Assembly (NCBI GenBank): GCA_947476645.1
Contig: CANJRM010000007.1
Location: 686-64,685, forward strand
Length of the DNA: 64,000 nt
Direction: 5' to 3'
Source of the DNA: Bacteroidota bacterium
GTDB lineage: Bacteria; Bacteroidota; Bacteroidia; Chitinophagales; LD1
The position numbers and the translations under genes were made by a program. The notes below the pieces were generated by a model. That model did no database searches. It saw nothing but the letters and a program-made list of their open reading frames with translations, and was not told the origin of the DNA. The stretch's first letter is position 1, and every line of letters begins with the position of its first letter. This document shows positions 6,642 to 62,123 of the stretch, piece after piece.

Positions 6642-6686
6642 TAAATGATTTTGAATTTTATTTGCATTCAAGCTAAAGTGTAAAGC

Positions 6687-8267: not shown

Positions 8268-8269
8268 CT

Positions 8270-9532
8270 ATGAAAAGAAAAACCTTCATTAAAAATGCAG
8301 CGCTTACGGCTTTATTGCCTTATGCCCTCAATGCCCTTACTGCCTGTAACCACCTGGCTGGCGGCAGAAAAAACCGTGTGCTGGTGCTTATTCAATTAGT
8401 GGGTGGTAACGATGGATTGAACACCCTCATTCCATTAGACCAATACAAAAACCTGTTGAAGGCGCGGCCTAATCTGCTTATACCCGAAAATAAAATTTTG
8501 CCGCTCAACGGTTTTTCGAATGTGGGTTTGCACCCCGGCTTAGGTGGTATAAAAGATATGTTCGATAATAAGCTGGCGGGTTTTGTGCAGGGTGTGGGTT
8601 ACGAAAACCCCAGCTATTCGCATTTTCGTTCTTCCGATATATGGCTTACGGGTTCAGAATCTTCCAAAGTGCTTTACACCGGCTGGATGGCGCGCTATCT
8701 CGAAACTATTTTCAACGGTTACCCAAAAGGTTTTCCAAATGCTGCCCACACCGACCCGCCTGCTATTAAAATTGGCGACACCGGCACCTATCTTTTTCAG
8801 GGCACCAGTATGGATATGAGTATTGTGATTGACCCTTCCACTCCTTTTGAAGCACCCGATGTAGATACGGATGCAGGAGAAACCGATAGCTTTGCGGGGC
8901 AGGAAGTAAAAAGTATTCGTGAAATTTTGCTGCAAACCAATAAGTATGCTTCGGTTCTAAAAAAGGCGTTGGGCACTTCTGTTGAGCATTCAAAACTGTA
9001 TCCTAAAGAAGGAACCAATCCTTTAGCCGACCAACTGAAGGTTGTAGCTAAACTCATAAAAGGCGGACTGCAAACGCAGGTTTACTTAGTTGATTTGAAG
9101 GGGTTCGATAATCACGATGAGCAAGCGGATAAGAAAGACCCTACGAAGGGCGCTCATGCCGATTTGATGGCGCAACTTAGCCAGGGCATCACTTGTTTTT
9201 GGGACGATATGAATCGTATAGGTCGCGAGCAGGATGTAATGGGAATGACCTTTTCGGAATTTGGCAGAAGAATAATGGCTAACGCAGGCAACGGCACCGA
9301 CCACGGCTCCTCACAGCCCCTATTCTATTTTGGGGCAAACGTGCACGCGGGCATTACGGGCAGCAATCCGGTTATTAATGACAACATTACTGCTAACGAT
9401 AATCTGGCTTTGCAATACGATTACCGCGCGGTGTTTGGTTCGCTCTTAAAACAATGGGCGGGTGCTTCGGCTGCTGCAGTTAGTGAAGCACTGCCGGGGA
9501 ACTTTCCGGAAATAAAAATTTTTAATTCGTAA
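8270..9532 (+). CDS. DUF1501 family protein with Tat-like/lipoprotein signal
   Basis: LVLIQLVGGNDGLN, SHFRSSDIW, GFDNH, SEFGRR, GTDHG; N-terminal KRKTFIK…LTAC; usual partner of DUF1800. Confidence 0.9.
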   Translation: MKRKTFIKNAALTALLPYALNALTACNHLAGGRKNRVLVLIQLVGGNDGLNTLIPLDQYKNLLKARPNLLIPENKILPLNGFSNVGLHPGLGGIKDMFDNKLAGFVQGVGYENPSYSHFRSSDIWLTGSESSKVLYTGWMARYLETIFNGYPKGFPNAAHTDPPAIKIGDTGTYLFQGTSMDMSIVIDPSTPFEAPDVDTDAGETDSFAGQEVKSIREILLQTNKYASVLKKALGTSVEHSKLYPKEGTNPLADQLKVVAKLIKGGLQTQVYLVDLKGFDNHDEQADKKDPTKGAHADLMAQLSQGITCFWDDMNRIGREQDVMGMTFSEFGRRIMANAGNGTDHGSSQPLFYFGANVHAGITGSNPVINDNITANDNLALQYDYRAVFGSLLKQWAGASAAAVSEALPGNFPEIKIFNS

Positions 9533-24525: not shown

Positions 24526-25365
24526 ATGAAGGCCAACCGGCACAAACTTATTCTTATCCTAAACCTGGTGGCTGTGCTGCTACTCCCTTTACTAAATTGG
24601 TTTAATCCCATTGACTTTTATTTCGAAGATTCATTGGCGGCTCATCAAAAATGGTTTCCCTCTTTTTATTTTTTCACCTATCTGTTTTTCAAATTATTTT
24701 TTCCTGTTGCAAATGGTATAATTCTATATGGCATGCTGAGGTTTCAGTTTAAAACCGAAAACAGAATAGTCTTTCTATTGATTCTTATTCAAAGCATGCT
24801 TCTCTTTTTTGTTCTGCAAACTATTGGCTTTGTTGCGGCTTCGCTTTATGTGTATTTGCTTTTGCTGATAAGTGTTTCTGTTTTTGCATGGGGGAAGTAT
24901 AAAAATGAAATAGCAAAATGTATTACTGTAGCAAAGGAGAGTAAAGTCATAACCGGAGGTTTTCTTTTCACAATTTATATCACGCTCTGCTTACTTCTTC
25001 CGCGTGCCTATCCGTTTGCCAAATACACTATGTTCAATAAATTTTCGGAACACACTTCTGTTTTTTTATTGCGGAATAACCAGCAGGAACTTGTTCCTTT
25101 GAATGAATATTCAACCGTTGATGGCAATCATTTGTTTGAGTTGTATGTGGCTACTAACGAACAGCACGGCTTTATGTATTTAAGCAACGAAGAAAAAGAA
25201 GTAGAACAGCAATTGGTTTGTAAGGAATTACTTCATTCCATTTTTGCCGATTTAAAAAAGCCCATACCTTTTGATTCCATCAGCCTTAACCGAATTGATT
25301 ATTTCCTAGAGCAAAATAAAATAGCAAGCCATGAAAAGCAGCTTTACAAGTGCGCGGTGGAATAA
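24526..25365 (+). CDS. Membrane protein with C-terminal 'PF-xx-(Y/F)-x-M(F/Y)N' domain
   Basis: Several TMs, then AYPFAKYTMFNKF…FDSISL, matching 61625..62056 and 62124..62555. Confidence 0.6.
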   Translation: MKANRHKLILILNLVAVLLLPLLNWFNPIDFYFEDSLAAHQKWFPSFYFFTYLFFKLFFPVANGIILYGMLRFQFKTENRIVFLLILIQSMLLFFVLQTIGFVAASLYVYLLLLISVSVFAWGKYKNEIAKCITVAKESKVITGGFLFTIYITLCLLLPRAYPFAKYTMFNKFSEHTSVFLLRNNQQELVPLNEYSTVDGNHLFELYVATNEQHGFMYLSNEEKEVEQQLVCKELLHSIFADLKKPIPFDSISLNRIDYFLEQNKIASHEKQLYKCAVE

Positions 25366-26230
25366 TTTTTTTGCGAATGATTACTCGCCATTAGAATGGA
25401 CATCGGTTAAGATATCTATCAGCTCCATCGTGTGCTTCTTTTCTATTTACATACTCTATCACCGCTCCACTCAACCCTTTCCTTCGGGCATTTGTAATTA
25501 TATTAACTGTGCTTACGTGGCTACCGATGCCATTAGATTGCCGGTGAGTGTTTTGTTGGTTCTACTTTCGCTAATGTATATATCAGAAGTGCAAATGATT
25601 TTCTCAACGCTTCTTCTTTTTGTTTTAGCGGTCTTGATTTTTTCGTTAGATGAATCAAACGGCAACCCTGCCGAGAATGGAATTTTAGCTCTTGTATTCT
25701 TGGCGCAGTTCAGTGCTTACCTGCAAAACAGATTCAATGCGCAAAGCAATCTCTCTAAAAACCGGATGCAGTTTTCTGCGCAATTCTTTGCAGCTGCTTA
25801 CACTCTTTCCGCTATTTCAAAATTACATGTTTCGGGTTTTGCATGGTTTACAGATGACGCACCAAAATTTGCGCTCGAAGTAATGCGCGTGTTCAATTCT
25901 GTTTACGTCACCAATGGTTTAAATGAATACAGCCACAAGGGATTGTCGGTAGCTTCTTTCATTATCGCGCATCCTTTGTTCACCAAACTAATCCTTGGTG
26001 GTTCGTTGTTATTAGAGTTGTGTGCCTTCAGCTTAATGCTGAATAAGAAAACAGCCTTTGTCTATTCGTTTTTGTTGCTGGCTTTTCATGCAGGCATATT
26101 CTACACTTTGAATATTTTTTTTCCAACCATTACACTTCCCCTGATTGTATTTTTCATCAATCCTTTGTATTGGTTACTGTCGGGCGCGGGTTATGTTTAT
26201 GCCACTTTTGTAACTCCTAAGGTTTCCTGA
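25331..26230 (+). CDS. HTTM-like membrane protein
   Basis: PFPSGIC, AYTLSAISKL…GFAW, LLLEL, FHAGI; paralog of 60748..61647. Confidence 0.65.
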   Translation: MKSSFTSARWNNFFANDYSPLEWTSVKISISSIVCFFSIYILYHRSTQPFPSGICNYINCAYVATDAIRLPVSVLLVLLSLMYISEVQMIFSTLLLFVLAVLIFSLDESNGNPAENGILALVFLAQFSAYLQNRFNAQSNLSKNRMQFSAQFFAAAYTLSAISKLHVSGFAWFTDDAPKFALEVMRVFNSVYVTNGLNEYSHKGLSVASFIIAHPLFTKLILGGSLLLELCAFSLMLNKKTAFVYSFLLLAFHAGIFYTLNIFFPTITLPLIVFFINPLYWLLSGAGYVYATFVTPKVS

Positions 26231-27996
26231 TGAATAACACAGACAAATTCGTTACTGCGAAATCTAAATCCGTTGATGTAATAACCACGCTGGTGGTTAC
26301 GCTATCGTGTTTTGTTATTACCTGGTTTGTGTTTGGCTTTTACTATGTAGAATACGAAGGATTGAACACGAGCTTTTTCAGCGGTAAACTAACTCCCGGC
26401 TTACCCTTTCGTTCAGTTTACTTTTCGGGAAACATGGGCATCTCTTTCATCTACTCGTTCTTCTATGAACACTTTCCAAATGTGGAATGGCTTTCATGGA
26501 TTTATTACAGCTATTTATTCTTCTCCTGTTTCATTGGTCTATATATAGTGGCAAAACTATTGCCTGCTAAAACTTCTCTAACGGTAAAGATTTTTCTTCA
26601 ACTACTAGTTTATTACCTCGTATTTGCCGACCATCACATTCATTATATCTACACCCGCGTTTCGTACATGTGTTGCGGGCTTTCATTAATTGGGTTAGTA
26701 GTGTTTTTTAATTCAACCACTACCATCAAAGCGCGTTGGTGGCTATTTATTTTGCTCAATTTATTTTTCACCATTGGCGCGCTTACCAGAATAGAAGTAG
26801 CTACGGCATGTTTTATTTTGCTGGCCGCCTTTGCTGTTTTCTATTCGCAAAATATCAAACAAACGATGGTGCTGTTTTTATTTCCGGCTGTGGTAATCGC
26901 TGTGATGTCGCTCACACTTTCTGTTGATATTAAAACAGCTACATCGAAAGAATTCTACAAACAAGTAGAGCCGGATATTGAAGAACAGTTTATTGCCAGA
27001 GAAAACAGAGTGCCGCTTTCGTTTATGAAAACACACAGAGACACCGTGCTTTATACAACAGCCATGGAAATGATGTGGAGCGACCCGCAAATTATTTCTT
27101 CCAACTATTTGCGTTCCCTTATCCTTTCTGAAAAATTAATGTTCACAGATGCTAAACAATGGAACCGTGTTTGCCGAAGTTTTTCACAAGTGGTTATAAA
27201 ATATTGGTATCTGCTTTTGCTTACAGTGCTGTTGAGTGTTGCGGTTCTCGTGCAATACGGTTTGGGAAAATCGTTTCTAAACCGCCTCTATACTTTAGCT
27301 TTTGTGTTTTCGTTTTGGGGATTAACCATTGCTCAAATTTATACCGACAAAGTGAACGAACGTTCCTTCCTGCCGTTTTTGAGTTTGTTTATTTTCTGTC
27401 ATGTTGTTTTACTTGCCCGTAGCACTGCCACTCGCATTTCGTTATGGCTTTATCCTTTGTTCATTTCCTGTTCGGTTCTTTTAGGCATTCATTTTTTTGC
27501 TTTAAAAGAAGAGTCAAACACGCTTAAAACAGATTTGCTCAAGTATCAGGCTAACTATGAAAAAATAAAACAAGTAGCAGCCAATAAATACTTAGTCATG
27601 AACTCCACTTCGTTCGACTATATATTTTTAAGCAATGTTCCTTTTCACCCATTCGATTTTTCTGCCTTCAAAAAAATGTATATCACCGATGGATACATCA
27701 TTCCGTTTTTGCCATACTACAAACGTTATCTGGAACAGGAATGCAATTGCGATATCTATGCCTTCCCGAGTTTCTGGAAATATGTAAACAACATTCAGCA
27801 AGACGTGGTGATTGTTTCTACACCTCATCGAATAAAAGTGGTGAAAGGATATTTGGAAGAAATACATCATTTCCCTTTTCCTGTTGTAGAAGATAAGACA
27901 GTACAGTTGATGGAACAACGCAAAAGCGACAATAGAGAAACGCCTGATGAAATGAAGATGTATGTTTTTGAGAGGCAGAAACAGGATTCTATTTAG
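26230..27996 (+). CDS. Polytopic membrane protein, paralog of 18997..20670 (possible GT-C)
   Basis: Shared KQVEP(D/E)IE, VPL..MKT..D, LRSL.L and YL...CNC blocks. Confidence 0.55.
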   Translation: MNNTDKFVTAKSKSVDVITTLVVTLSCFVITWFVFGFYYVEYEGLNTSFFSGKLTPGLPFRSVYFSGNMGISFIYSFFYEHFPNVEWLSWIYYSYLFFSCFIGLYIVAKLLPAKTSLTVKIFLQLLVYYLVFADHHIHYIYTRVSYMCCGLSLIGLVVFFNSTTTIKARWWLFILLNLFFTIGALTRIEVATACFILLAAFAVFYSQNIKQTMVLFLFPAVVIAVMSLTLSVDIKTATSKEFYKQVEPDIEEQFIARENRVPLSFMKTHRDTVLYTTAMEMMWSDPQIISSNYLRSLILSEKLMFTDAKQWNRVCRSFSQVVIKYWYLLLLTVLLSVAVLVQYGLGKSFLNRLYTLAFVFSFWGLTIAQIYTDKVNERSFLPFLSLFIFCHVVLLARSTATRISLWLYPLFISCSVLLGIHFFALKEESNTLKTDLLKYQANYEKIKQVAANKYLVMNSTSFDYIFLSNVPFHPFDFSAFKKMYITDGYIIPFLPYYKRYLEQECNCDIYAFPSFWKYVNNIQQDVVIVSTPHRIKVVKGYLEEIHHFPFPVVEDKTVQLMEQRKSDNRETPDEMKMYVFERQKQDSI

Positions 27997-29155
27997 TAAC
28001 TGGGTAAGTTTTAACGGCAGTAACTACCCCCAATGAATCGGGAAACCAATATTGCGATTTGTGCACGAAGGAAATTCTGAAGGTTGAAGCCTTATCTGCT
28101 CTCTTCATGGGAAATGAATATTGAAGCGACTTTCCATCCAAAGGCACATCATCACCTTCTACGCCAAGTAAGTTGTGGTTGCCGAGGTTGGCGTACATCT
28201 CTTTATCAAACTGCTGTTTCTTATTGATGCGAATAGTTTTAGAGCCCAGCACATTTGAATCTTTATCCAGTACATCACAATTCAAAATCATCTCCGGTCC
28301 CGGACTAATCTTATGCGGCATGATGGTATTTTGCCAGGTTATAATTCCCTGCTTTTTATCGGGCGAAACGGAGAAATGAAAATCATTCATCACCAATTCA
28401 ATTTTCTCATCCACTTTTCCTTTTGCTTCATGCTGCCAGAAATAATAGTGTGTGCCTTTCCCCTTAGTATCATATTCCTGATGGCAATTCACACAAAGCG
28501 CCTGCCCTGTTTTTTGAATGGCAATGGTTGGATTCAGATTGCGCACTACATCGAAATGACAGAGATAACAAGTGATATTATTAGAGACAAGCGTTTGTAC
28601 AGTTTGCAACCGCGGAGTAGAATCATTTGCGGTAAACATATGTTTCAACGAGCGCAAGTTATTGCCATCAGCATGGCAACTCATACAGTCTATACTGCTG
28701 GCGCGTTGAGTACTGTCTTCCCTTGTAAGCGGTCGAGGATGCGCTTCTTTCAAGAGTTCTTCTGCAAATTGAAGCGGCTTACCGGTAGTGTCGCGCAAAA
28801 GCGTTTCAAACATATTTTGTGGAGTGTGGCAACCCATGCAATGCTCTATGGAAGTATTTACCTGCTTGGTATAAAAATCGCAATTGTATTTATCGCTATT
28901 TACAAATGCCTGATGTGCCAAGAGATTTTTGTAAGCATTGGCATGAGGTCCTTTCATCTCGTTTTCATATTCCTGCTTATGACATGAGGCACATTTAGCC
29001 ACTTGGTCAACGCGCTTCATTTTTTTGAACTCATCCGTTTGCAAAAAATCGTGATAGGATTTTTTAGATGAATTGCTAGAATGACAACACATCAGAATGA
29101 TAGAAATCATCACGGCTGTAAAAACTACGAAAACGATTTTTCTGATGGAGAACAT
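27989..29155 (-). CDS. Exported multiheme (5 CxxCH) c-type cytochrome
   Basis: CASCH, CMGCH, CMSCH, CYLCH, CVNCH; N-terminal signal/anchor. Confidence 0.85.
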   Translation of the reverse strand: MFSIRKIVFVVFTAVMISIILMCCHSSNSSKKSYHDFLQTDEFKKMKRVDQVAKCASCHKQEYENEMKGPHANAYKNLLAHQAFVNSDKYNCDFYTKQVNTSIEHCMGCHTPQNMFETLLRDTTGKPLQFAEELLKEAHPRPLTREDSTQRASSIDCMSCHADGNNLRSLKHMFTANDSTPRLQTVQTLVSNNITCYLCHFDVVRNLNPTIAIQKTGQALCVNCHQEYDTKGKGTHYYFWQHEAKGKVDEKIELVMNDFHFSVSPDKKQGIITWQNTIMPHKISPGPEMILNCDVLDKDSNVLGSKTIRINKKQQFDKEMYANLGNHNLLGVEGDDVPLDGKSLQYSFPMKRADKASTFRISFVHKSQYWFPDSLGVVTAVKTYPVTK

Positions 29156-29164
29156 ACGACAAAA

Positions 29165-30589
29165 CTAATTTTTCATTTGCTGCAATCTAACCCAATGCAA
29201 TGCTTTTTCAATGCGCTTGGTGAAATTAGATTTTTCGAAAGGCAATTCAACTAACTGCTTCATGTTTTTTGGTTTGCGCAACGTGTCAAATTGCAGCCAT
29301 TGTAAATACACTTTTCTATAGCAGAAATTGAAAAGAATGAATTCTAATCGTGCGAAGAACGAAAGTTTTGTATTGAAACTTCTCGCCACAATTCCACTTA
29401 GCGAATAATACTTACCAATAAATTCTGTTGCCCCGCTTTGAACATACTTTGCATCAACACCATTGGGTAAATAAGTCAATTGATTGCCATCGTAGCTCGG
29501 AATTTTTTCATTGAGAAACACGCCCTTTTTCTTTACATACTCATGCACTTTTGTTCCCGGGTTATAAGTAAGGAAGGTAAGCTTGGCATAAATAATTCCC
29601 ATACGCTGATAGAACTTAAATAACTCTTCAAAAGTGTTTTGGTGCGTGCCTTCTAATCCTAAAATAATTCCTGCAGCTATTTGAATTCCATACGACTGCA
29701 CCTTGCGAATAATGCGTTCGTAACTTTCAATATGGTTCGTATTCATTTTGTGAACTGAGTTGAGCGATTGCTGGTCAATTGATTCCAACCCGCAGTAAAT
29801 CATTTTGCAGCGGCTGTCTTTTAAAGCGGCTAATACTTCATCATTATCTAAAAGCTCAATACACATTTCCGCCATCCAACCCACTGCCCCGCTTTCCTTA
29901 ATCAACCTTGATGCTTCAATTACATGATGGCTATCTACGCCAAAATTGTAGTCAACCACATTGATGAACTTGTCTTTATATTGAGGCAAAATATTTTTCA
30001 ATGCATCAAGACTGCTCAGGTTGTAGTTTTTCTTTTGCATGGTGTGAACCATACAGAAAATACATTTCTCTGTACATCCTCTCGAAGTTTCAAGCGGATA
30101 ACCCATGAACTGATAATACTTTTTCGCACCAGGCAAAAAAGAAAAATCGGGTTGGGAGATTATATTGCTGTTATTCTCCCCAAAATATTTTTGCTGAAGA
30201 TTATTTGCTTTTAAATCTGCCACGAAAGCATCGACAATAGGTTCAAACAAACCACCCAATACTGATTCGGCATATTCCAAGCACATATCCGGAAGTAAAG
30301 AAGGTAACTCACCGCCCCAAACAATTTTTGATGAAGGAGAAAGTGATTTCAATTTCTTTGAAACTGTGATTGCCTGTTCAAAGTTTTGAGAAGAAACTTT
30401 CAAGCCAAACATCACCACGTCTTTTTCCGAAGGAGTATATTCTTTGTAATCAGTAAAGTTGAGGTCAACTATTTTTACTGAATATGATTTTGATAAACAA
30501 GCGGCAACAGACAGAAGTGAAAGAGAAATGACCCCTTTAGGGAAAGTGGGTAAATCTATAAGAATGATATTTTCGTTCCTGTCTTTCAT
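29165..30589 (-). CDS. B12-binding-domain radical SAM enzyme
   Basis: SLSLLSVAA, VWGG, ETSRGCTEKCIFC, GLES; start could be up to 15 nt further upstream. Confidence 0.85.
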   Translation of the reverse strand: MKDRNENIILIDLPTFPKGVISLSLLSVAACLSKSYSVKIVDLNFTDYKEYTPSEKDVVMFGLKVSSQNFEQAITVSKKLKSLSPSSKIVWGGELPSLLPDMCLEYAESVLGGLFEPIVDAFVADLKANNLQQKYFGENNSNIISQPDFSFLPGAKKYYQFMGYPLETSRGCTEKCIFCMVHTMQKKNYNLSSLDALKNILPQYKDKFINVVDYNFGVDSHHVIEASRLIKESGAVGWMAEMCIELLDNDEVLAALKDSRCKMIYCGLESIDQQSLNSVHKMNTNHIESYERIIRKVQSYGIQIAAGIILGLEGTHQNTFEELFKFYQRMGIIYAKLTFLTYNPGTKVHEYVKKKGVFLNEKIPSYDGNQLTYLPNGVDAKYVQSGATEFIGKYYSLSGIVARSFNTKLSFFARLEFILFNFCYRKVYLQWLQFDTLRKPKNMKQLVELPFEKSNFTKRIEKALHWVRLQQMKN

Positions 30590-30669
30590 TAAACCAATCA
30601 TCAAATTTGAAAACTATTTTAGGCAAATAGTTTTCGTTCACAATATGAATTATTTTTTCTTCACCCGCT

Positions 30670-31485
30670 ATGTTTAAGAACGCTACCGTAGAACAGAATC
30701 TTGCTCAAAACGGATTTGCGGTGATAAATGCAAATCTGCTTGCCGAAGTTGAAGAGTTGCAGAATTACATCGCTGAACATTTTCAATTTACGGGAAACGA
30801 TTTCTATTACAGTTTACTCGCCAATACTTTTGAGCAGAATAAAGTGTTGCAAAATTCTATCAGAAAAATCTTGAACAGTTTTTACGAAACTCAATTCACT
30901 GGTTGCAGAACAATCACCGAATCATTCCTTGTTAAACCTGCAAATACTTTCGATGAATTGCTGCTTCACCAGGATTGGAATTACACTGATGAAAGGAATT
31001 TCTCTGCTTACAACATCTGGATTCCTTTAACTGATGTAACGGAAGAAAACGGCACCTTGTTTTTTTTAAAGGGAAGTCATTTGTGGTTTAATAATCTGCG
31101 CTCAGCTACATTACCTACAGCAAGAATCAGCATGAACAATTTTTCTTCGGAGCAAATTGAAACGGTCATTGTAAAGAAAGGGCAGGCACTTCTTTTTCAT
31201 CCCGCAGTTTTTCATGGTTCGTATCCTAACCATTCTTTGCAAAACAGAATTGTAGTTACCGCCACGCTTTTATCTAAGGAGGCACCGTTCCTTTACTACC
31301 AACAAAGCGAATCGCCCAATGAAGTGAATGTTTTTCAACTGAATGACGATACTTTCTTGAAAGACTTGAAAACAATTGCAGTGGGAGGAAATCCTGATGC
31401 ACAGGAAATAAGTCGTTTGAAGTATTCGCATCAAACTATAACCGATACAGAGTTGAAAGAGAAATTACTGGCGCAAAGTTTATGA
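30670..31485 (+). CDS. PhyH-like Fe(II)/2OG dioxygenase
   Basis: LHQDW, NIWIPL, ENG.L…GSH, FHGSYPN…R. Confidence 0.9.
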   Translation: MFKNATVEQNLAQNGFAVINANLLAEVEELQNYIAEHFQFTGNDFYYSLLANTFEQNKVLQNSIRKILNSFYETQFTGCRTITESFLVKPANTFDELLLHQDWNYTDERNFSAYNIWIPLTDVTEENGTLFFLKGSHLWFNNLRSATLPTARISMNNFSSEQIETVIVKKGQALLFHPAVFHGSYPNHSLQNRIVVTATLLSKEAPFLYYQQSESPNEVNVFQLNDDTFLKDLKTIAVGGNPDAQEISRLKYSHQTITDTELKEKLLAQSL

Positions 31486-32361
31486 CCAGTAATAGACTTC
31501 TTTGTTGTCGTTCGAGAAGTTCAAAAACCCACCAAATGTAATTCGAGGAACGGTGCCTTTAATATCCTCTACGCGATGCCAGATTGGACCACCTGAAAAA
31601 ACAAGAATATCTCCGGGTTGCGGCTTCACCGCAAAACTGCGCACGTCTTTTACATAGATAGGTTTGTCGTTATCGTCAATGACAAACTCATTATTCTCAG
31701 GGCTTTCTTTTCGTTTAACTTTATCCCAAAGCATATCATAGATAGTCAACTCGCCACCCGCATCGGGTTGTTGAAGCACCACGAAATAACTCAATTGGTC
31801 ATCCATGTCAATGTCATTTTTTATCAGCGAGTAGTAAAACATGCTCTGCGCCTGAAATAAATTTCCACAATGCACATGCAGCCCGCCCATGTTTGGATAG
31901 AACATTCTGAAAGTACCGGGAGCTACTTCTTTGTCTTTTATTTTATTGTGAGGAATGCTCACGCGATAATTCTTCGCTGCGGATTTGAAGAAGTTATCAA
32001 GTTTGCGCGCCAGATTACCAATAGAAGAATTGGTTTCTTTATGCTTATCAAAAAGCGAAAGTTTGCTGTAGTATGCTTCTAATCTTTCTGCGGTGTCAGT
32101 AATAATGGCAAAAGGCGCAGGAAACATTTTACCCGAAGGAGTAGGCATAAATTCGTCTTCATTCAAGTTCGCCAGAAAACTTTTCATCTCGTTTACTTCC
32201 TCGACAGTAAAAACATTTTTCGTGATAAAGCCATCGAGTTCGCGGTTTTTAATTTGACCTACCAGATCACCACGTTGTTCCAATTCTTCAAAAGGCACTT
32301 CTATGAAATTGAAAAATATTTCATCGCCATATATACGTGCTGTGTTTGTGGTATTTTTCAT
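31480..32361 (-). CDS. WelO5/AmbO5-like carrier-independent Fe(II)/2OG halogenase candidate
   Basis: VHCGN (HxG, no carboxylate ligand), DQLSYF, PDAGGELTIY, PGDILVFSGG.IWHRV, PRITFGGFLNFS…VYYWS C-terminus. These match WelO5 motifs as recalled. ATG 32361 preferred. Confidence 0.8.
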   Translation of the reverse strand: MKNTTNTARIYGDEIFFNFIEVPFEELEQRGDLVGQIKNRELDGFITKNVFTVEEVNEMKSFLANLNEDEFMPTPSGKMFPAPFAIITDTAERLEAYYSKLSLFDKHKETNSSIGNLARKLDNFFKSAAKNYRVSIPHNKIKDKEVAPGTFRMFYPNMGGLHVHCGNLFQAQSMFYYSLIKNDIDMDDQLSYFVVLQQPDAGGELTIYDMLWDKVKRKESPENNEFVIDDNDKPIYVKDVRSFAVKPQPGDILVFSGGPIWHRVEDIKGTVPRITFGGFLNFSNDNKEVYYWS

Positions 32362-32459
32362 TTGAATATGATTGAAATCAGAAAATAATTCTGTCAAACT
32401 TAATTATTTTCAAGTTTCAAAATAAACACAGGAAGACGATCTTCTTTCGAGATAAAACA

Positions 32460-33347
32460 ATGCGTGTTGTGAGCCCTATTTTTAAAAACGAATCGTTGCA
32501 AACGCTGTTTGAAAAAAACGGATTTGTGAAAGTGCCTTTGCTCAATCTGCAACAGGTTAATGAGCTCAATGATTTTTTTGCAGCGCATAAAGAACTGCAT
32601 GCTACCGTTGACAATCTTCACCACACCACTACCGATACTCAAAATCCGGAATTAATTCTTAGTGTGGATGCAAAAATCAAATCTGTTTTTCTTCCTGAGT
32701 TAGAAAAGGTGCTTGTTGACTTTAAAGGATTGGCGGGTTGTTTTCATATTAAAGAGTCGGGTATAGGCTCTGAAACAGGAATACATCAGGATCCGACTTT
32801 TGTGGATGAAAATAATTTTTTCAGTGCGAATGTTTGGGTGGCATTGCAGGATATTGACAAAACAAACGGCAATCTCTTTTTTGTGAGCGGCTCTAACCGT
32901 GCTATCACATCCCTGCGCGTTACGCCTGCGTTCCCGAGTTATTACGAAAGCTTTCAGCAAGCTTTGCCTGAAATGGCTACGCATGTTTCGTTGAAAAAAG
33001 GTGAAGCTGTAATATTCAACAACGCAACTATTCACGCGGCTACTGAAAATTTATCGAGCGATAGTCGCTTAGCGGCTACACTGCTTGTTTGCTCTGCATC
33101 GGCTCAATGGCTTTTGTATTATCAGGAAAAAGGTGCGGCAAACGATAAGATTGAAAAGTATCATTTAGATGTGGATACGTTTTTCTCTATTGCTAACAAC
33201 GGAAGACCCGATAAGAAAGCGTTTAAAGAATTTATTGCTTATGAATATCCACAACTAACCAAAGAAGAATTTTTGAGTCTTACAGGTCGAAAGAAAAACT
33301 ATCTGCAACGAATTACCGATGTTTTTAGAATGAAGAGTGCGGTATGA
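32460..33347 (+). CDS. PhyH-like Fe(II)/2OG dioxygenase
   Basis: IHQDP, NVWVAL, TIHA…R. Confidence 0.9.
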   Translation: MRVVSPIFKNESLQTLFEKNGFVKVPLLNLQQVNELNDFFAAHKELHATVDNLHHTTTDTQNPELILSVDAKIKSVFLPELEKVLVDFKGLAGCFHIKESGIGSETGIHQDPTFVDENNFFSANVWVALQDIDKTNGNLFFVSGSNRAITSLRVTPAFPSYYESFQQALPEMATHVSLKKGEAVIFNNATIHAATENLSSDSRLAATLLVCSASAQWLLYYQEKGAANDKIEKYHLDVDTFFSIANNGRPDKKAFKEFIAYEYPQLTKEEFLSLTGRKKNYLQRITDVFRMKSAV

Positions 33348-34219
33348 AACCATTGCTCCAATCAGCGGCACTTCAAACTGAATTTGAAGAAAATGGTTTT
33401 GTGAAAGTGCCTTTGCTTTCTGCTTCAGAAGCCGAAAGATTACTCGTTGCTTACCAAGCGGTAGCTGCGGCACATGAAAAAATAAATATTCCTTACATCA
33501 CCACCAGCCACTCCAACGATTCGGCTTTGATAACGCATGTAGACGGAGTTTTACAAAAAGTTATTGCTCCGGCTTTGAGTAAAGTGTTGAGCAATTACAA
33601 TTTGCTCTTCGGCAATTACCTCGTGAAAATGCCGGTTACAAATTCTGAAACGGAACCGCATCAGGATATTACGTTTGTAGATGAAACTGAATTTGCTTCG
33701 GTAAATGTTTGGGTGGCACTGCAGGATACGAATGAAGAGAATGGCTGCATGTATTTTTTAAAAGGTAGTCATCATCTAATGCCAACCTTACGACCAACAC
33801 ATAATTACCCTTGGGCTTATAAAAATGTGAAAGAGGAAATTAAAAAGCAGGCGGAGGTTTTTACTGCCAAAGCAGGCGATGCTTTTATTTTTAATCATGC
33901 GGTAGTGCATGGCTCATTTCCGAATAGAACAAAACAACCAAGAGTGGCTGCGGTAATTGCTGCTTATCCGAGCGATGCACAATTGCTTCATTATTATTTG
34001 CCCGACGGAGAGAAAAATAAAGTGCAGCAATACAGCATGACGAAGGAAGCGTTTCTTCACTTCAAAAAGGGACAGCCGCCTGCTAAAGGAGTATTTCTGA
34101 AGGAAGTGAATTTTGATTTTAAGCAATTGAGCAAAACTGAATTTGATTTGCTGAGGAATAAAAAATCTAAACCGGTTTCGCTGTTTAGTGCAGTATCTAA
34201 ATTTTTGAAAGAAAGTTGA
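33344..34219 (+). CDS. PhyH-like Fe(II)/2OG dioxygenase
   Basis: PHQDI, NVWVAL, GSH, VHGSFPN…R; ATGA overlap with upstream gene. Confidence 0.9.
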   Translation: MKPLLQSAALQTEFEENGFVKVPLLSASEAERLLVAYQAVAAAHEKINIPYITTSHSNDSALITHVDGVLQKVIAPALSKVLSNYNLLFGNYLVKMPVTNSETEPHQDITFVDETEFASVNVWVALQDTNEENGCMYFLKGSHHLMPTLRPTHNYPWAYKNVKEEIKKQAEVFTAKAGDAFIFNHAVVHGSFPNRTKQPRVAAVIAAYPSDAQLLHYYLPDGEKNKVQQYSMTKEAFLHFKKGQPPAKGVFLKEVNFDFKQLSKTEFDLLRNKKSKPVSLFSAVSKFLKES

Positions 34220-34220
34220 T

Positions 34221-35129
34221 ATGAGTAAGCCGAAAGTTTTTCGTGATGAAAAATTGCAAAACGAATTTGATGAAAATGGTTTTGTGAAGTTTCGCATGTT
34301 CAAGCCTGAGCAGGTAAAGCGGTTGCACGATTTTTATTTGCAAACACAACATCAACACGAAACAGTTATTGATAAGAGAAAGTTTCACGCTACTAACGAT
34401 ACGGATAATGCTACATTAATTAATAGCGCAGATAGTTTTATTAAGGAAGTAATGTTTGAAGAAATTGACAAGCACTTCTATAACTACAAAACAATTGCAG
34501 CTAACTATCTGCTCAAACAATCTTCGCCTGAATCTGAATTAGGTCCGCATCAGGATTTACGGTTTGTAGATGAAGAGAAATTTTATTCGTTCAATATTTG
34601 GGTGGCTACAGAACCTACTGATAAAAGGAATGGTTGTCTGCGCTTTCTAAAAGGTAGTCATAGATTCCACGATACCATTCGTGCATTGCCTACTTATCCT
34701 TGGAAATACGAAAGCGTGATTAGAGAAATTCCGAAGTATTTTACAGATGTAACGACTGAAGTTGGCGATTGTATTATTTTGAATCATGCCTGCATTCACG
34801 GCTCGTATCCTAATTTATCAGGGCAAACAAGAATTGCCGCTATACTTGCCATGATACCGGAAGGAGCATCTATCTGTCATTACTTTTTGCCCGATGGAAA
34901 TCCGCAAAACAAAGTGGAGAAGTATGCGATGACGCTGAATGATTTTATCAACTTGAAAGGAGGGCAGCGGCCTGAACATGCTGTGCTGGAAGAAACATTT
35001 ATGTATGATTTTTCGCCTGTGGAGGCGGGGCCGTTTTTGAAATCTATTGCTAATAAAAAGTCACAAGAAAATAATGGTTACCAATTTATCAGAAACCAAA
35101 TCACCGCCTTGTTTAAAGGCGTTAGATGA
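34221..35129 (+). CDS. PhyH-like Fe(II)/2OG dioxygenase
   Basis: PHQDL, NIWVA, GSH, IHGSYPN…R. Confidence 0.9.
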   Translation: MSKPKVFRDEKLQNEFDENGFVKFRMFKPEQVKRLHDFYLQTQHQHETVIDKRKFHATNDTDNATLINSADSFIKEVMFEEIDKHFYNYKTIAANYLLKQSSPESELGPHQDLRFVDEEKFYSFNIWVATEPTDKRNGCLRFLKGSHRFHDTIRALPTYPWKYESVIREIPKYFTDVTTEVGDCIILNHACIHGSYPNLSGQTRIAAILAMIPEGASICHYFLPDGNPQNKVEKYAMTLNDFINLKGGQRPEHAVLEETFMYDFSPVEAGPFLKSIANKKSQENNGYQFIRNQITALFKGVR

Positions 35130-36762
35130 ATTAGGTTTTTGCACTTTTCCGGTTTTTGAAAACAACGAAGTGGAGCAATTGCTTTCGTTGTATCACAGCA
35201 ATTTTGGAGAGCGAAGTATCAACGCCCTTTACGCTTCGCACAATTCGAACCCCGTGGAGCAGAGTTTGTATGTAAGCAGAGAGATAAAAAAGATAGTCAG
35301 CGAATCGCTGCAAAGTATTTTTCCTGACTACGAATATTTTCTCGGGCATTTTATGGTGAAGGGCGCTAATGTTGAGAAAGAGTTTTCGCTGCATCAGGAT
35401 TGGAATATTGTAGATGAGTCGAAATATAAAAGCTATCAGGTTTGGATTCCGTTGCAGTTAAGTTACCCGGCCAACGGGGGCATTTTTGTGGTGCCGGGTA
35501 GTCATCAGTTTTTTGGCAATTACCGCAGTGGCAGTTATGGAATTCCTGTGGTGCCCTTTGATGAAAAGGTTAAACCATTGATAAGCGATATCATAGTGCC
35601 TGCCGGAAATGCATTGGTGTATCACAATGGTTTGTTTCATGCTTCGTATCCGAATACTACTGATGAAATTCGAATTGCGGTGATTGCCAACTTTGTAGAA
35701 AAGCGCGCCCCTACTTTCTTCTTTCATAAAAACAAAGAAGCCAATGCTACTGAACTCTATGAGATAACCGGAGAGTCGTTGATTGCGCAATTGCCGCAAT
35801 TTGAAAAAGGAATAGTTGACAGTAGTTACATTCTCAACAGCACTGTTCCGCTTTGCAAAACAGATAATGCACAAATTACTTCTGCCGATTTGGTTTCGCA
35901 TTACGAAAAAAAATTTTGCAAAGAACCTGCCGCACAAATCAAACAGCTGCACATAACAGTAACTGATGAGTTGGAACAAAAACTAAATGAAGACGGCTAC
36001 ACCGTAATTGATTTGCTTGATGCAACGCAGGTTGAGTTTTTCAAAAAAGAATACAACACGCACTTCGGTAACATAGACCGAACACCGGGACGATTCACCA
36101 CGCTGCAAGACACCGATGCCGTGATGAAAAAACAGATTCACGATTTTATTGTAAAACATATTGATGCTCCGCTGCGCAAATATTTTAAAGATTTCATTAT
36201 TCCGGTTTCGCAGTTTTATACTAAGAAAGCGCACACCAGTGGCGATATTGATTTGCATGCCGACAGCACGCTTCTGCTCAATCATCAACTGGAACCGCAC
36301 TATGCCATTTGGATTCCACTGATTGATGTAGATGCCAGCAACGGCACACTAACGGTTATTCCAAGAAGTCATCGTATGAACGGTGCTTTTTTCAGCGGTA
36401 CGTTTGCTTGCTATCATCAGGCGCATTTAGATTGGTTGCGCCAATTTGAAGTGCCTATAAAACTAAAACCCGGACAGGCAGTTATTTTCGATAACAACGC
36501 TTTGCATAATTCTACAGCTAACCAAACAGATATTGACCGCTTATGTTTTACTTTCAGAATAACACACACCGCTTCGCAGTATTATAGTTTTGTGGGTGAT
36601 GGAAATGAAATTGTGGTGCATGAAGAGGGACACAATTTTTACATGGATAGCAACTGGGATGGAGAAAATAAAAACCCCAATGCTAAATATGCGGGCACAT
36701 TAAAAAACAGTCTCACTAAAATTTCAAGAGAGGAACTTCAAAAAATTTTAATGCCGAATTGA
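35074..36762 (+). CDS. Didomain PhyH-PhyH Fe(II)/2OG dioxygenase
   Basis: Domain 1 LHQDW…FHASYPN..R; domain 2 LHADS…LHNSTAN..R. ATG 35074 preferred. Confidence 0.88.
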   Translation: MVTNLSETKSPPCLKALDELGFCTFPVFENNEVEQLLSLYHSNFGERSINALYASHNSNPVEQSLYVSREIKKIVSESLQSIFPDYEYFLGHFMVKGANVEKEFSLHQDWNIVDESKYKSYQVWIPLQLSYPANGGIFVVPGSHQFFGNYRSGSYGIPVVPFDEKVKPLISDIIVPAGNALVYHNGLFHASYPNTTDEIRIAVIANFVEKRAPTFFFHKNKEANATELYEITGESLIAQLPQFEKGIVDSSYILNSTVPLCKTDNAQITSADLVSHYEKKFCKEPAAQIKQLHITVTDELEQKLNEDGYTVIDLLDATQVEFFKKEYNTHFGNIDRTPGRFTTLQDTDAVMKKQIHDFIVKHIDAPLRKYFKDFIIPVSQFYTKKAHTSGDIDLHADSTLLLNHQLEPHYAIWIPLIDVDASNGTLTVIPRSHRMNGAFFSGTFACYHQAHLDWLRQFEVPIKLKPGQAVIFDNNALHNSTANQTDIDRLCFTFRITHTASQYYSFVGDGNEIVVHEEGHNFYMDSNWDGENKNPNAKYAGTLKNSLTKISREELQKILMPN

Positions 36763-36764
36763 AC

Positions 36765-38051
36765 ATGAATGAAGCGCAGACCAACCCAGAAATAGCTATT
36801 GACGTAAAAAATATTTCGAAAGAATATTTTATGGGCAAAAACCATTCTGTAAAGGATGGTGACAAACATTTTTTTGCACTCAACGATGTTTCGTTTACGC
36901 TCAATCGTGGTGATGTGCTGGGTATTATCGGCAGCAATGGTTCGGGTAAATCTACGCTGCTCAAAATCTTAAGTCAGATTACAAAGCCAAGTGCGGGTGA
37001 AGCACATTTTTACGGCAGCGTTACTTCTATTTTGGATGTAGGAAATAATTTTCATCCTGATTTAACCGGAAGAGAAAATGTGAAGATTCAACTCAAACTT
37101 GCGAGTGTTCCTTCCAATCAGTTTGAAACTTACTACGAAAAAACAAAAACGTTCAGCGAGATTGGTGAGTTCTTTGACCAACCCGTGAAATATTATTCGA
37201 GCGGTATGTTTTTACGTTTAGCATTCTCTCTTGCTTTTCATCTTTCGTCCGATATTTTAATTCTTGATGAAGTGCTTTCTGTTGGCGATGAAGGGTTTCG
37301 TTTAAAATGTCAGGAGTTGTTGAAAAAGTTTACCGATAGCGGTAAAACAATTTTGTTTGTGTCGCACAACCGTGCTGACATTCTGGAGTTGAGCAATAAA
37401 TGTATTTGGTTAGATAAAGGACGGATCAAAAAAATGGGTGCGCCTACCGAAGTGTTGGGAGAATATTTTGCCATGCACCGCGATAATTTTGATGCGCAAA
37501 AAACAATTATTGATGTGCATACTCCGCATACCGACAGCGATGGCACATTGCATTTGCATTGGAGCGAAGCCGAAGCACCGGGCAATGATATTATAGCTGT
37601 ACGCGAGTTATCGGTTCAATCGCCTGCCGGCAAATTATTTTCTTCTGAGCCCGTGGAAATAAAATTTGTGATTGATAAAAAGAAAAGCGGAGTGCAGATA
37701 GGAGCCTTCTTTTTTCTCGAAGATGTTTTTTATCAGCCGGTAATGGTTGGTCACTTTTTAAATAACTCGGGCGCACAGCATTTTGGTAACGAGTTAAAAA
37801 ACCAAACCGGTTTGGTGGAAATTAAATCAACCATTCCCGCAAACTTTCTTGTGCCCGGCAAATATTTTTTCCTCGTTCGTTTTGGAATGGAAGAAAACGA
37901 ATGGCACACTACTTCGAGCGAAGCGTTTCGGTTCTCCGAAAAAATGAGTTTCACGATTCATGCAAAAACCGACTACGTAGATTTTGTTGGCGACATCAGC
38001 AAAGGCTCGGTGCGCCCGCCTTTGGGTTGGTCAATTCAAAAAATAAATTAA
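36765..38051 (+). CDS. wzt: Polysaccharide ABC exporter ATP-binding subunit with C-terminal Wzt_C-like domain
   Basis: FALNDVSF, GSNGSGKST, YSSGM.LRLAF, ILILDE, VSHN; C-terminal beta-rich domain. Confidence 0.85.
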   Translation: MNEAQTNPEIAIDVKNISKEYFMGKNHSVKDGDKHFFALNDVSFTLNRGDVLGIIGSNGSGKSTLLKILSQITKPSAGEAHFYGSVTSILDVGNNFHPDLTGRENVKIQLKLASVPSNQFETYYEKTKTFSEIGEFFDQPVKYYSSGMFLRLAFSLAFHLSSDILILDEVLSVGDEGFRLKCQELLKKFTDSGKTILFVSHNRADILELSNKCIWLDKGRIKKMGAPTEVLGEYFAMHRDNFDAQKTIIDVHTPHTDSDGTLHLHWSEAEAPGNDIIAVRELSVQSPAGKLFSSEPVEIKFVIDKKKSGVQIGAFFFLEDVFYQPVMVGHFLNNSGAQHFGNELKNQTGLVEIKSTIPANFLVPGKYFFLVRFGMEENEWHTTSSEAFRFSEKMSFTIHAKTDYVDFVGDISKGSVRPPLGWSIQKIN

Positions 38052-38071: not shown

Positions 38072-38926
38072 TTACAAGCGCGAGAAGAAACGTTTCAGCC
38101 CGAACCACTTCATGCGTTCATCCATATATGGTACGGCAGAAGAAGGAAGCGTTTTTACGAGCGTGTTTGTTTCGGGTTTTTGGAAATGGTTGTAATGAAT
38201 AAAGAAGTCGGTGTTCGGAACCGAATAGACTTCAATCTCTTTACTTCCCTCAGGCATACAATAATGTATAACCGGTGCGGCTGCCGGAGCCACCGAAAGA
38301 TTAATGGCAGGTCGAACTGTTTTTGTTTTGTTAGGTGGCGAATAATGCAGAAGCGCATGGTTGTAAAAAATAGCATCGCCTGCTTTCATTGGCAAAAGCT
38401 TTCCATATTTTTTTATCCATTGAGGCTCATGTATCCGGTGCGTTTGCCTAATCAATGGCCCGCGAATAGCATTCGTTACTTTGTGCGAACCTTCAATAAT
38501 ACCTAGGCAACCGTTTTCTTCATTCACATCTATTAATGGAACCCAGATAGAAACGGTGTGGTAAGCGGCTTCATCTATATAACACCAGTCGGCATGTAAA
38601 TCCATGGCGTTCTGCGCATCCGGATTTTTAATCATGAAATTGGCAAAGAGCGAAGTGAAATTATTGAGGTGCGGTGCCGCTTTAGGAAACACCACTTGAG
38701 TGATGGTGTCGTGCACTAACTTTTTATACGCCACATCTTTGCTGAAATGCGTAGTGGCAAAAAAACCATTGTATTCATTTTGATGCTTCGCAAATAAAGA
38801 AGCGAGCGTGTCAACTTCATTGGCATTCAACAGCGATGGAAAAAGCACATAGCCCTTGCGTTCAAATTGTTCTTGCTGTTCGGCATTTAGAAAAGAAGGA
38901 TACATGGCAGTGTGGTGAGCCGACAA
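38072..38926 (-). CDS. PhyH-like Fe(II)/2OG dioxygenase
   Basis: LHADW, SIWVPL, GSH, LHYSPPN…R; start uncertain (TTG 38926 or ATG 21 nt downstream). Confidence 0.88.
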   Translation of the reverse strand: MSAHHTAMYPSFLNAEQQEQFERKGYVLFPSLLNANEVDTLASLFAKHQNEYNGFFATTHFSKDVAYKKLVHDTITQVVFPKAAPHLNNFTSLFANFMIKNPDAQNAMDLHADWCYIDEAAYHTVSIWVPLIDVNEENGCLGIIEGSHKVTNAIRGPLIRQTHRIHEPQWIKKYGKLLPMKAGDAIFYNHALLHYSPPNKTKTVRPAINLSVAPAAAPVIHYCMPEGSKEIEVYSVPNTDFFIHYNHFQKPETNTLVKTLPSSAVPYMDERMKWFGLKRFFSRL

Positions 38927-39856
38927 TTAGTTAGGGCGATATTTTTTGATGAGGCGCAGCAATTCTTTATCGGTCAAATTGAACGGCTCAAACTTTACGG
39001 TTTCCTTTTTCCATAAATTTTCATCGGGCTTCGAAATAAAATCGTAACCGTAGTAGAAGTTTTCGGTCACCACATATTTTTCAATCAAACTATCGTCAAT
39101 GTCTTTGTTGCGGAAATAATAAATTAACTCATAATTTTTGCGCAACACAGTTATCGTAATCGCATGACGAATTTCTTTCGAAAGATTGGGCGCACTGGCG
39201 TGAATAACCGCAGGGTCAAACACAATTACATCACCGGCTTTAACGGTTACCGGTTGCGTGTGCTTGTAAAGTGTAGGAATGTGTTTCTTAAACTGCCAAG
39301 GCACTCCCAAACTGCGCTGTGTGTTTCCCCAAAGATGGCTGCCGGGCACAAAAGAAATAGGACCGTTCTCCATGGTTACATCGCAAAAAGGAATCCAAAC
39401 AAAAAGACAGTAATCTTTTTCTTCGTCAATGACCGTACTGTCCTGATGAATCAGCAAATCGCTGTTGACGTGTGGAGGTTTTACCTGATAAGCCCCACCG
39501 GTGTGAGGGTCCACCTTATCCATTTTAAACATGCGCGGCAAAACAGTTGCCGCATTTTTGTTGATGACGTCCTGTGTTTTCTTTCTTATTTCAGGATTGA
39601 ATAATCGTCCGCTATTCAATAAGTTTTTATCGAGTTCAAATCCTTCGAGCTTCGAAATTTCGGTAAACGTGTCCATGAAGCTTTTTATTTCTTCGGGCTT
39701 CACCACGTTTTCAATTACACACCAGCCATGCGTTAAATAATACTGATGCTTTTCTTCATCTAAAAAAAATCCTTCTTTTCTAACTTCTAAATGCGGATTT
39801 ACAGTTGCCACTTCGGGCTCACCAAGGATGGAAGAAAAAAACGAACGAATACTCAT
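38927..39856 (-). CDS. PhyH-like Fe(II)/2OG dioxygenase
   Basis: IHQDS, VWIP, PGSH, IHASAPN…R. Confidence 0.9.
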   Translation of the reverse strand: MSIRSFFSSILGEPEVATVNPHLEVRKEGFFLDEEKHQYYLTHGWCVIENVVKPEEIKSFMDTFTEISKLEGFELDKNLLNSGRLFNPEIRKKTQDVINKNAATVLPRMFKMDKVDPHTGGAYQVKPPHVNSDLLIHQDSTVIDEEKDYCLFVWIPFCDVTMENGPISFVPGSHLWGNTQRSLGVPWQFKKHIPTLYKHTQPVTVKAGDVIVFDPAVIHASAPNLSKEIRHAITITVLRKNYELIYYFRNKDIDDSLIEKYVVTENFYYGYDFISKPDENLWKKETVKFEPFNLTDKELLRLIKKYRPN

Positions 39857-54701: not shown

Positions 54702-54850
54702 CGAGCCGTTAGTTCTATAAAGAAACGGGCAGTCGCACATATACGAGTAGTCATTTCTTTAAAGAAACACCGGGTCGTAAACAAACGAGTGGTCATTTCT
54801 TTGAAGAAACACCGAGTCGTTTGTGCTGAAAATCAATCAGTTAAGTAAAA
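54702..54850 (+). repeat. Array of three 42-bp imperfect palindromic units plus conserved tail (locus 2)
   Basis: Units start at 54702, 54744, 54786; tail tcgtttgtgctgaaaatcaatcagttaagtaaaa is 32/34 identical to the locus 1 reverse complement. Confidence 0.9.
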
Positions 54851-54888
54851 GCAAGTATTTTTTAATCCAAAAACCAAGAAAAAAAACC

Positions 54889-62056: not shown

Positions 62057-62123
62057 AAAATGTAAAAACCGGCAAGGAATAAAAGAAATCCGAACATTTT
62101 TTTTCTAAAATACAATCTTACCC

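Follow-up and report, generated by a model that had tools for sequence, protein, structure and literature searches.

We analysed a 64,000-nucleotide stretch of contig CANJRM010000007.1 from a Bacteroidota genome (hereafter the window) and focused on a gene at 31480-32361 on its minus strand. The 293-amino-acid product, P0001, is a full-length WelO5-family Fe(II)/2-oxoglutarate enzyme with a halogenase-type metal site, as seen from its match to Pfam family PF22814, its predicted fold and the alignment of its ligands. The reading frame is free of stops, ends in YYWS and occurs once in the assembly. Motifs that an initial annotation had read from the gene were located as follows: H-C-G-N at 31872-31861, DQLSYF from residue 188, WHRV from residue 261, PRITFGGFL (given there as PR.T.GGFL) from residue 272 and YYWS from residue 290. 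Its statement that WelO5 carries HVGN, DQLSYF and YYWS agrees with alignments to the Protein Data Bank (PDB) chains, in which all three are present, and the Bacteroidota host that it proposed is matched by close relatives titled Bacteroidetes or Chitinophagales.

The consensus of the Bacteroidota -7 promoter element is TAnnTTTG, and a match, TAAGTTTG, lies upstream of the gene at 32395-32402 on the minus strand. In 9 of the 13 close loci, the 200 bases surrounding the start contain such an element; its genome background is 0.04 per 100 bases of each strand. We rejected an alternative TTG start at 32397 because it falls within TAAGTTTG, which leaves the ATG at 32361 as the likelier start. Judged by eye, the N terminus has no hydrophobic signal stretch. 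Of 32 listed lake-sample differences inside the gene, 27 were at third codon positions (a hand count of 40 of 270 rows), and we therefore consider the gene to be under constraint. The sequencing runs listed included none of RNA, which has no bearing on expression, and three runs with shares of 0.05-0.17 were set aside as evidence of habitat. A pseudogene was likewise rejected: the reading frame is intact, and the ligands and the promoter-like element are conserved.

Profile and structure searches gave the same family assignment. PF22814 matched at an E value of 2.6e-59 and 201.5 bits (cut-off 27), over positions 1-277 of 277, and NCBIfam assigned no family. A phmmer search of solved structures returned six WelO5-type chains (WelO5, WelO5* and Wi-WelO15) that cover residues 18-293 with E values of 4e-30 to 2e-28; beyond these, no chain scored below 0.8. 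An AlphaFold2 model made from an alignment of 147 relatives had a predicted local distance difference test score of 96.8, and a fold search with this model placed WelO5 structures in the ten best positions (Z 27.8-30.2, root-mean-square deviation of about 2.4; best 5IQS, with 259 residues aligned), with SadA as the next fold family at Z 16.4. None of BesD, AdeV, AspX and BtnX appeared in the lists of sequence and fold matches.

As references for alignment, we took a hapalindole enzyme from a metagenome locus that carries an ABBA prenyltransferase and two Stig cyclases (L087), and the protein MstM from a second one (L094). H164, G166, S191, H262 and R273 of P0001 align with the H164, G166, S189, H259 and R270 positions of the L087 hapalindole halogenase, trimmed to 290 amino acids. 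His164-Cys165-Gly166 (31864-31872, minus strand) contains the first iron ligand and, as in WelO5 H164/G166, a glycine that replaces the Asp/Glu ligand. Ser191 (31789-31791, minus strand) is the counterpart of WelO5 Ser189, a second-sphere residue that favours chlorination (the Ser189Ala variant of WelO5 hydroxylates and chlorinates equally; PMC5350257), and the segment 31543-31578 (minus strand) runs from His262, the distal iron ligand, to Arg273, which presumably binds 2-oxoglutarate. We examined these positions in P0001 and 120 listed relatives of the 144 found, which reach down to about 43% identity. His164, Ser191, His262 and Arg273 are present in all 121, the last two also being invariant in alignment A1 (147), and Gly166 is present in 120; the sole exception, P0104 (47% identity), has glutamate there. 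We also read position 166 in 132 distant representatives with a length of 230 amino acids or more, drawn from the best 150 of the 605 clusters at 50% identity that make up the PF22814 family: it is glycine in 106, glutamate in 15, aspartate in 6, histidine in 3, and phenylalanine and alanine in 1 each. The fold thus accepts an acid at this position, yet glycine is fixed in the near relatives, which argues that it is likely selected; in the 13 close loci it is encoded by four different glycine codons. The alignment that the initial annotation had proposed as a check therefore gave what it predicted: a full-length match to WelO5 with His-x-Gly, the distal His and the Ser conserved, and glycine rather than Asp/Glu at the ligand position. 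From this site we predict that P0001 probably has halogenase activity.

The region around the active site differs from that of the alkaloid enzymes. Residues 212-236 (31654-31728, minus strand), predicted as short strands, form a polar lid region with a conserved Lys218 (121 of 121 near relatives) and Asn224 (118 of 121); in the alignment this region and the 75-85 loop (PSGKMFPAPFA) both depart from the matching stretches of the L087 enzyme and MstM. R152, L161, F169 and F279 match WelO5 R153, I161, F169 and F276, of which we take R153, F169 and F276 to be part of the substrate pocket; position 221 was counted as a pocket position from the title of a PDB entry. WelO5 positions 81, 88 and 161 are described as pocket positions (PMC8766452), and C-terminal residues are said to influence substrate use in WelO5 and AmbO5 (PMC8407142). 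The lid hints that the substrate is more polar than that of WelO5, and perhaps anionic. We found no carrier-protein, nonribosomal peptide synthetase or polyketide synthase family among the window proteins scanned, which were open reading frames (ORFs) longer than about 110-140 amino acids, the size of an acyl carrier protein.

We placed P0001 in a FastTree phylogeny of 247 sequences, rooted at the midpoint and weak at its deep nodes, that included every fourth near relative (P0104 not among them); three proteins of one locus (L069) were misaligned in its input. P0001 fell into its own clade of 46 tips with support 1.0, in which all of the included sequences have HCG, whereas the L087 enzyme (30% identity to P0001) and MstM (28%) pair elsewhere. 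On this evidence, P0001 belongs to a distinct subfamily, apart from the alkaloid enzymes. Forms with Asp or Glu at the ligand position arise at several separate places in the tree. High-GC relatives nearer to WelO5 (L083, L099, L101, L102, L107 and L108) adjoin genes for B12-dependent radical S-adenosylmethionine (SAM) enzymes, PhyH proteins or FGE-sulfatase-like proteins; L083 is an HVD form, and a flavin halogenase-like gene and a cis-prenyltransferase accompany the L108 member.

Clusters of look-alike proteins hold Bacteroidota, Cyanobacteriota, Myxococcota and Pseudomonadota records. The family was found in 51 of 401 genomes of the host's order and in 30 of 59 of its family; a phylum-wide sample gave matches in 5 of 401 genomes, at full length in only 2, so that among the genomes searched these enzymes occur mainly in a small number of families within the host's order. 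Viral contigs gave one pattern match and no relative of P0001. The family has a prior record in print. Cluster 7 of a radical-halogenase atlas (Kipouros and Chang, Nature 2026, PMC13489965) lists 35 PF22814 proteins predicted as halogenases, of which 8 are named hapalindole enzymes and 27 are not so named; according to its supplementary file 8, 5 are from Bacteroidota and one is MstM, and others come from Actinomycetota, Myxococcota and Microcystis. The main text of the atlas does not contain the string 'Bacteroid', and the 35 cluster 7 rows carry no Chitinophagales label; the portions covered name neither substrates nor gene neighbourhoods for them. As predictions, HxG proteins of the WelO5 family outside hapalindole clusters, Bacteroidota ones among them, had thus been published before. 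The surprise that the initial annotation attached to a location outside a hapalindole cluster was therefore overstated: with 605 clusters, 27 of 35 atlas rows not named for hapalindole, five of the rows from Bacteroidota, and MstM in an isoprenoid cluster, such members are the majority of the family. In the literature covered, which took in few subscription papers and only part of the atlas supplements (others may hold cluster 7 neighbourhoods), we found no study of Bacteroidota WelO5-family enzymes, their gene context or their island, and it is for the glycan-island context described below that we did not find an earlier published description.

The window is one long island. It contains nine PhyH-family genes (all HxD), four B12-dependent and four twitch-type radical SAM enzymes, two Asp/Arg-hydroxylase-family enzymes, a JmjC cupin, several SGNH proteins, a methyltransferase, a UbiA protein, two glycosyltransferases, an FdtA-like sugar isomerase and a Wzt/TagH-like ATPase. 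A PhyH-family oxygenase gene (30670-31485, plus strand; HQD, from Pfam and motif reading) converges on the P0001 gene with overlapping stop codons, and a divergent run on the other side (32460-36762, plus strand) encodes three PhyH oxygenases plus a PhyH protein with two domains, each of the HxD type. Next is a Wzt/TagH-like polysaccharide-export ATP-binding cassette ATPase (36759-38051, plus strand; NF010066 TagH at 3e-50, below the cut-off), whose C-terminal extension of 213 amino acids has no Pfam match. Its usual partner type, a Wzm permease (PF01061), was not found in the window, and matched only on contigs C1, C9 and C53. Two further PhyH oxygenases (HAD and HQD) occupy 38072-39856 on the minus strand. 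The segment 39991-51413 encodes a SAM methyltransferase, the UbiA-family prenyltransferase, a DXD glycosyltransferase, the four twitch-type radical SAM proteins (three of which pass the NF033640 cut-off) and an SGNH-like protein. To the left, a membrane protein, a multiheme cytochrome c-like protein and a B12-dependent radical SAM enzyme (26230-30604) are conserved neighbours; for the first (26230-27996) there is a GT-C-like hint, a lead from clusters in which 21-45% of members carry that family. Farther left, 239-20670 holds a GT2 glycosyltransferase, the FdtA-like isomerase, SGNH proteins, DUF1800 and DUF1501 proteins, a PhyH protein, the two Asp/Arg-hydroxylase-family enzymes, the JmjC cupin, an LPG-synthase-like protein and two B12 radical SAM enzymes.

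Several other features of the region were noted. Two DUF1800 genes and a DUF1501 gene lie at 5061-9532 (plus strand), and this pair of families recurs in 7 related loci. Repeated pairs without a Pfam match, each a protein of 140-280 amino acids with a membrane protein of about 300, are found at 24526-26230 (plus strand) and 60748-62555 (minus strand), with a third set on C7 just past the window end; we take them to resemble SdpA/SdpB (HTTM) pairs. Two overlapping ORFs at 54823-55822 (plus strand), also without a Pfam match, are apparently one gene frameshifted near 55330-55350, and a similar protein start is found on C13 near 24602-25018. The island is interrupted by a HepT-like ribonuclease gene (55910-56260, minus strand) and a gene for an endosialidase-chaperone (Peptidase_S74) protein (56811-58811, plus strand). 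A second array, at 9779-16534 of contig C29 (G000), has six PhyH domains in five genes, then a DegT-like aminotransferase, and adjoins ribosomal and acetyl-CoA carboxylase genes.

The setting recurs in related genomes. We compared 47 loci, each covering up to 20 kb around family members, which left 43 after removal of four duplicates, and scored neighbours within about 10 kb. PhyH genes were found in 40 of 43 loci, Wzt in 27, Wzm in 12 and either of the two in 28; of the conserved left-hand neighbours, the B12 radical SAM enzyme was found in 19, the membrane protein (an unnamed family) in 16 and the multiheme cytochrome-like protein in 8. Wider stretches of 80 kb from five genomes, in which 107 of 191 unlabelled proteins of at least 150 amino acids were scanned, contain nucleotide-sugar epimerases, DegT aminotransferases, UDP-glucose dehydrogenase, GT2, GT4 and GT9 glycosyltransferases, O-antigen ligases, MBOAT with an AlgX-like protein, polysaccharide deacetylases and sulfotransferases, as well as a FabH-like gene in two; no polyketide synthase, nonribosomal peptide synthetase or terpene cyclase was found among their annotated proteins. 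The initial annotation had read the gene as that of a free-substrate halogenase; it missed this recurring, oxygenase-rich surface-glycan island, which points away from a free, alkaloid-like metabolite.

It seems that the gene is optional within the island and dependent on it. Most genomes of the host's family have 5-27 PhyH matches. The number is never below 9 in the 30 that carry the gene; of the 29 without it, 18 have at least 5 and 11 have at most 3, so that the gene is present in none of the 11 PhyH-poor genomes and the WelO5 family is absent from 18 of 48 PhyH-rich ones. The association (Fisher p of 1e-4) is overstated by the kinship of these genomes, and nine of the negatives were inferred from tallies. 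One copy (L003) lies outside an island, among housekeeping genes, in a genome with 18 PhyH matches. The 53 family proteins of these loci comprise 37 of the Gly/Ala type, 15 of the Asp/Glu type and 1 of the His type (a hand count in which L052:7835, HHD, is ambiguous), and five loci hold both types. Two or three paralogues occur in L051, L052, L059, L064 and L073.

The same loci held further proteins of interest. The island PhyH proteins with a single domain are HxD in 172 of 189; 16 have H-Q-N at this position (for example, L062:13545-14372, L063:8667-9530 and L056:1877-2791) and form a recurring subfamily. Only one of the 189 aligned, L058:7666-8586 (plus strand), has H-Q-G in place of HxD, which makes it a second halogenase candidate from a different family in an island of like kind. 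A natural fusion at L060:8601-10370 (plus strand) joins an N-terminal PhyH domain to a C-terminal WelO5-family HCG domain, a hint that both domains act on one substrate. At L069:6351-8965, three tandem WelO5-family H-N-G genes directly follow Wzm and Wzt.

We tentatively favour a reading, held at somewhat less than even confidence, in which P0001 is an accessory radical chlorinase that acts on a cytoplasmic building block of the island's surface glycoconjugate. By the established chemistry of the family, His164 and His262 would hold Fe(II), with 2-oxoglutarate and halide bound, and chloride would likely occupy the position left open by Gly166. Reaction with O2 would yield a halo-ferryl species that abstracts a hydrogen from the substrate; the halogen would then pass to the substrate radical, with Ser191 steering the outcome away from hydroxylation. 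The target may be an aliphatic C-H of a polar substrate: a sugar linked to a nucleotide or to a lipid, or an acyl substituent on such a sugar. This molecule could also be oxidized by the HxD PhyH neighbours, and the product may leave through Wzm/Wzt; in different lineages, such molecules would receive Cl from Gly-type relatives and OH from Asp/Glu-type ones. The reading builds on the observed fold, family, ligand set, conservation and island context, from which we infer halide transfer, the class of substrate and export. In its broader form, freshwater Chitinophagales would use a WelO5-family enzyme to chlorinate their surface glycan or glycolipid and would alternate Cl with OH by swapping Gly-type and Asp/Glu-type copies; this form is doubtful.

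Several observations weigh against the favoured reading. Precedent in the family favours a greasy small molecule: the substrates of the characterized relatives are lipophilic indole-terpenoids, and MstM, the nearest named member that is not an alkaloid enzyme, is encoded in an isoprenoid cluster. Tailoring enzymes in the window far outnumber the glycosyltransferases, of which two were recognized, and the UbiA protein, the methyltransferase, the B12 radical SAM enzymes, the LpxO-like hydroxylases and a desaturase (in L006) would fit lipids too. Wzt is near in only 6 of the 13 closest loci and Wzm in none, and two of these loci (L003 and L041) have no PhyH gene within about 10 kb. HxG enzymes can also hydroxylate, as does WelO5*, which on one native substrate, 12-epi-hapalindole C, gave about 50% hydroxylated and about 25% chlorinated product (PMC8766452). 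Our literature search found no chlorinated O-antigen or lipopolysaccharide made by a 2-oxoglutarate enzyme, and so no precedent in the material covered.

Two alternatives are unlikely and, in our view, equally so. In the first, P0001 halogenates a lipophilic small molecule or membrane lipid (of prenylated aromatic, acyl chain, alkylresorcinol or aryl-polyene type), and the island makes a lipid or a mixed glycolipid. WelO5, and probably MstM, provide the precedent, the four pocket residues shared with WelO5 are consistent with it, and the island carries the UbiA, CMAS-like methyltransferase, B12 radical SAM and LpxO-like genes; elsewhere in the genome are an unlinked aryl-polyene/flexirubin-like cluster, on C17, and two cytochrome P450 genes (named by sequence reading). 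However, no squalene-hopene-type cyclase was found in the 89.9%-complete genome, no isoprenoid-supply genes surround the P0001 gene as they do in the mst cluster, the UbiA cluster is near only 2 of the 13 close loci, and the polar lid with its invariant Lys218 fits such a substrate poorly.

In the second, no halogenation takes place in the cell: the open site would take water or a group of the substrate, and P0001 would hydroxylate, desaturate or cyclize the island's substrate as its PhyH neighbours, oxygenases with a mostly intact HxD, may do. The outcome of the reaction in the WelO5 family depends on the position of the substrate (PMC8766452), and 15 of 53 family proteins in like islands are of the acid type. 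The conserved acids of P0001 are E21, E55, D200, E204, D251 and E265, and the last, three residues past the distal His and invariant in the close clade, could have a role at the metal. Glu265 is probably not a stand-in ligand, because it is also present in HxE/HxD members (for example, in L068 and L051). Gly166 and Ser191, moreover, are both fixed, as in chlorinases, and the rule of two His with Gly or Ala predicted two new halogenases that were both confirmed (PMC13489965).

Cryptic halogenation is improbable. Here the halogen would be a leaving group for ring closure, elimination or cyclopropane formation and the end product would lack it, as known for Fe/2-oxoglutarate halogenases such as BesD and that of the coronamic acid pathway (PMC8407142); yet no such partner enzyme is tied to the gene, which is optional in PhyH-rich genomes and in L003 stands alone. 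That P0001 is a hapalindole-type alkaloid chlorinase, as the automatic database labels of some relatives read, or an inactive relic is highly improbable, given its 30% identity to the L087 enzyme, its separate clade, its intact gene with conserved ligands and promoter-like element, and the pathway genes that were not found.

A hapalindole pathway in this genome was also rejected. Searches of the genome, which is 89.9% complete, gave no isonitrile synthase (PF05141), ABBA prenyltransferase (PF11468) or Stig cyclase (PF22825), and none of these families passed its cut-off in control genomes either. When the L087 cluster was used as a control (tblastn, 1e-3), its prenyltransferase and both Stig cyclases had no match in the genome and its halogenase matched the P0001 gene at 9e-26. 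These searches uphold what the initial annotation had stated for the window. Its proposal of a halogenase with a new substrate stands in part: the WelO5 family, the halogenase-type metal site and the lack of a hapalindole pathway hold, the substrate is most likely unlike that of WelO5, and halogenation itself is a prediction.

Taken together, P0001 is a well-conserved WelO5-family enzyme of a distinct subfamily and probably a halogenase. The WelO5 enzymes characterized so far have a few cyanobacterial alkaloids as substrates, and their engineering for selective C-H chlorination is under way; with a WelO5 metal site, a different lid and a different genomic setting, this subfamily would directly offer new substrate scope. 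Natural pairs with Gly and acid (P0001 and P0104, at 47% identity, and the paralogues in L051, L052, L059, L064 and L073) suit the study of Cl versus OH transfer. A product on the cell surface would be envelope chemistry for which we have so far found no description. Surface chlorination, if true, would amount to a halogenated bacterial surface polymer, would give natural organochlorine in lakes a structural source and would make hapalindole and merosterol chlorination offshoots of a much larger envelope-tailoring family. If the product is not on the surface, P0001 would be one further predicted halogenase in a family known to be widespread.

P0001 was compared with several known systems. With WelO5, AmbO5, WelO5* and Wi-WelO15 (PDB 5IQS, 8ACV and 6GEM) it has in common the full-length fold, the His-x-Gly...His ligands, the Ser189 equivalent, the YYWS end and several pocket residues. 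It differs in its identity of about 26-30%, separate clade, 75-85 loop, polar lid and glycan-island context; WelO5 and AmbO5 are 79% identical to each other (PMC8407142), and by cluster genes, identity and clade P0001 does not class with the hapalindole chlorinases. A search with P0258 did not return the named WelO5 proteins. MstM, which L094 encodes exactly (merosterol mst cluster, Scytonema sp. PCC 10023), is likewise an HxG protein of the family outside a hapalindole cluster. Unlike P0001, to which it is 28% identical, it is sister to the hapalindole enzyme and neighbours DXS, IspG, polyprenyl synthase, IspH, Rieske and P450 genes. MstM reportedly chlorinates merosterol A. The passages covered of PMC9401909, PMC10304443 and PMC10419491 do not state this.

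BesD, AdeV, AspX and BtnX, free-substrate Fe/2-oxoglutarate halogenases of other families, share with P0001 its predicted chemistry, and in AdeV the position chlorinated is a sugar carbon, on a substrate that is polar and phosphorylated (PMC8407142). The literature searched gave no halogenated product of a Wzm/Wzt-type locus. The island resembles Wzm/Wzt glycan loci in its Wzt-like ATPase, glycosyltransferases and nucleotide-sugar enzymes, and its PhyH proteins match both 2-oxoglutarate oxygenases of the 'sporadic carbohydrate cluster' (TIGR04324 and TIGR04436) weakly, far below the cut-off. Unlike known loci of this type, the window combines nine PhyH genes and many radical SAM enzymes with a halogenase-type enzyme.

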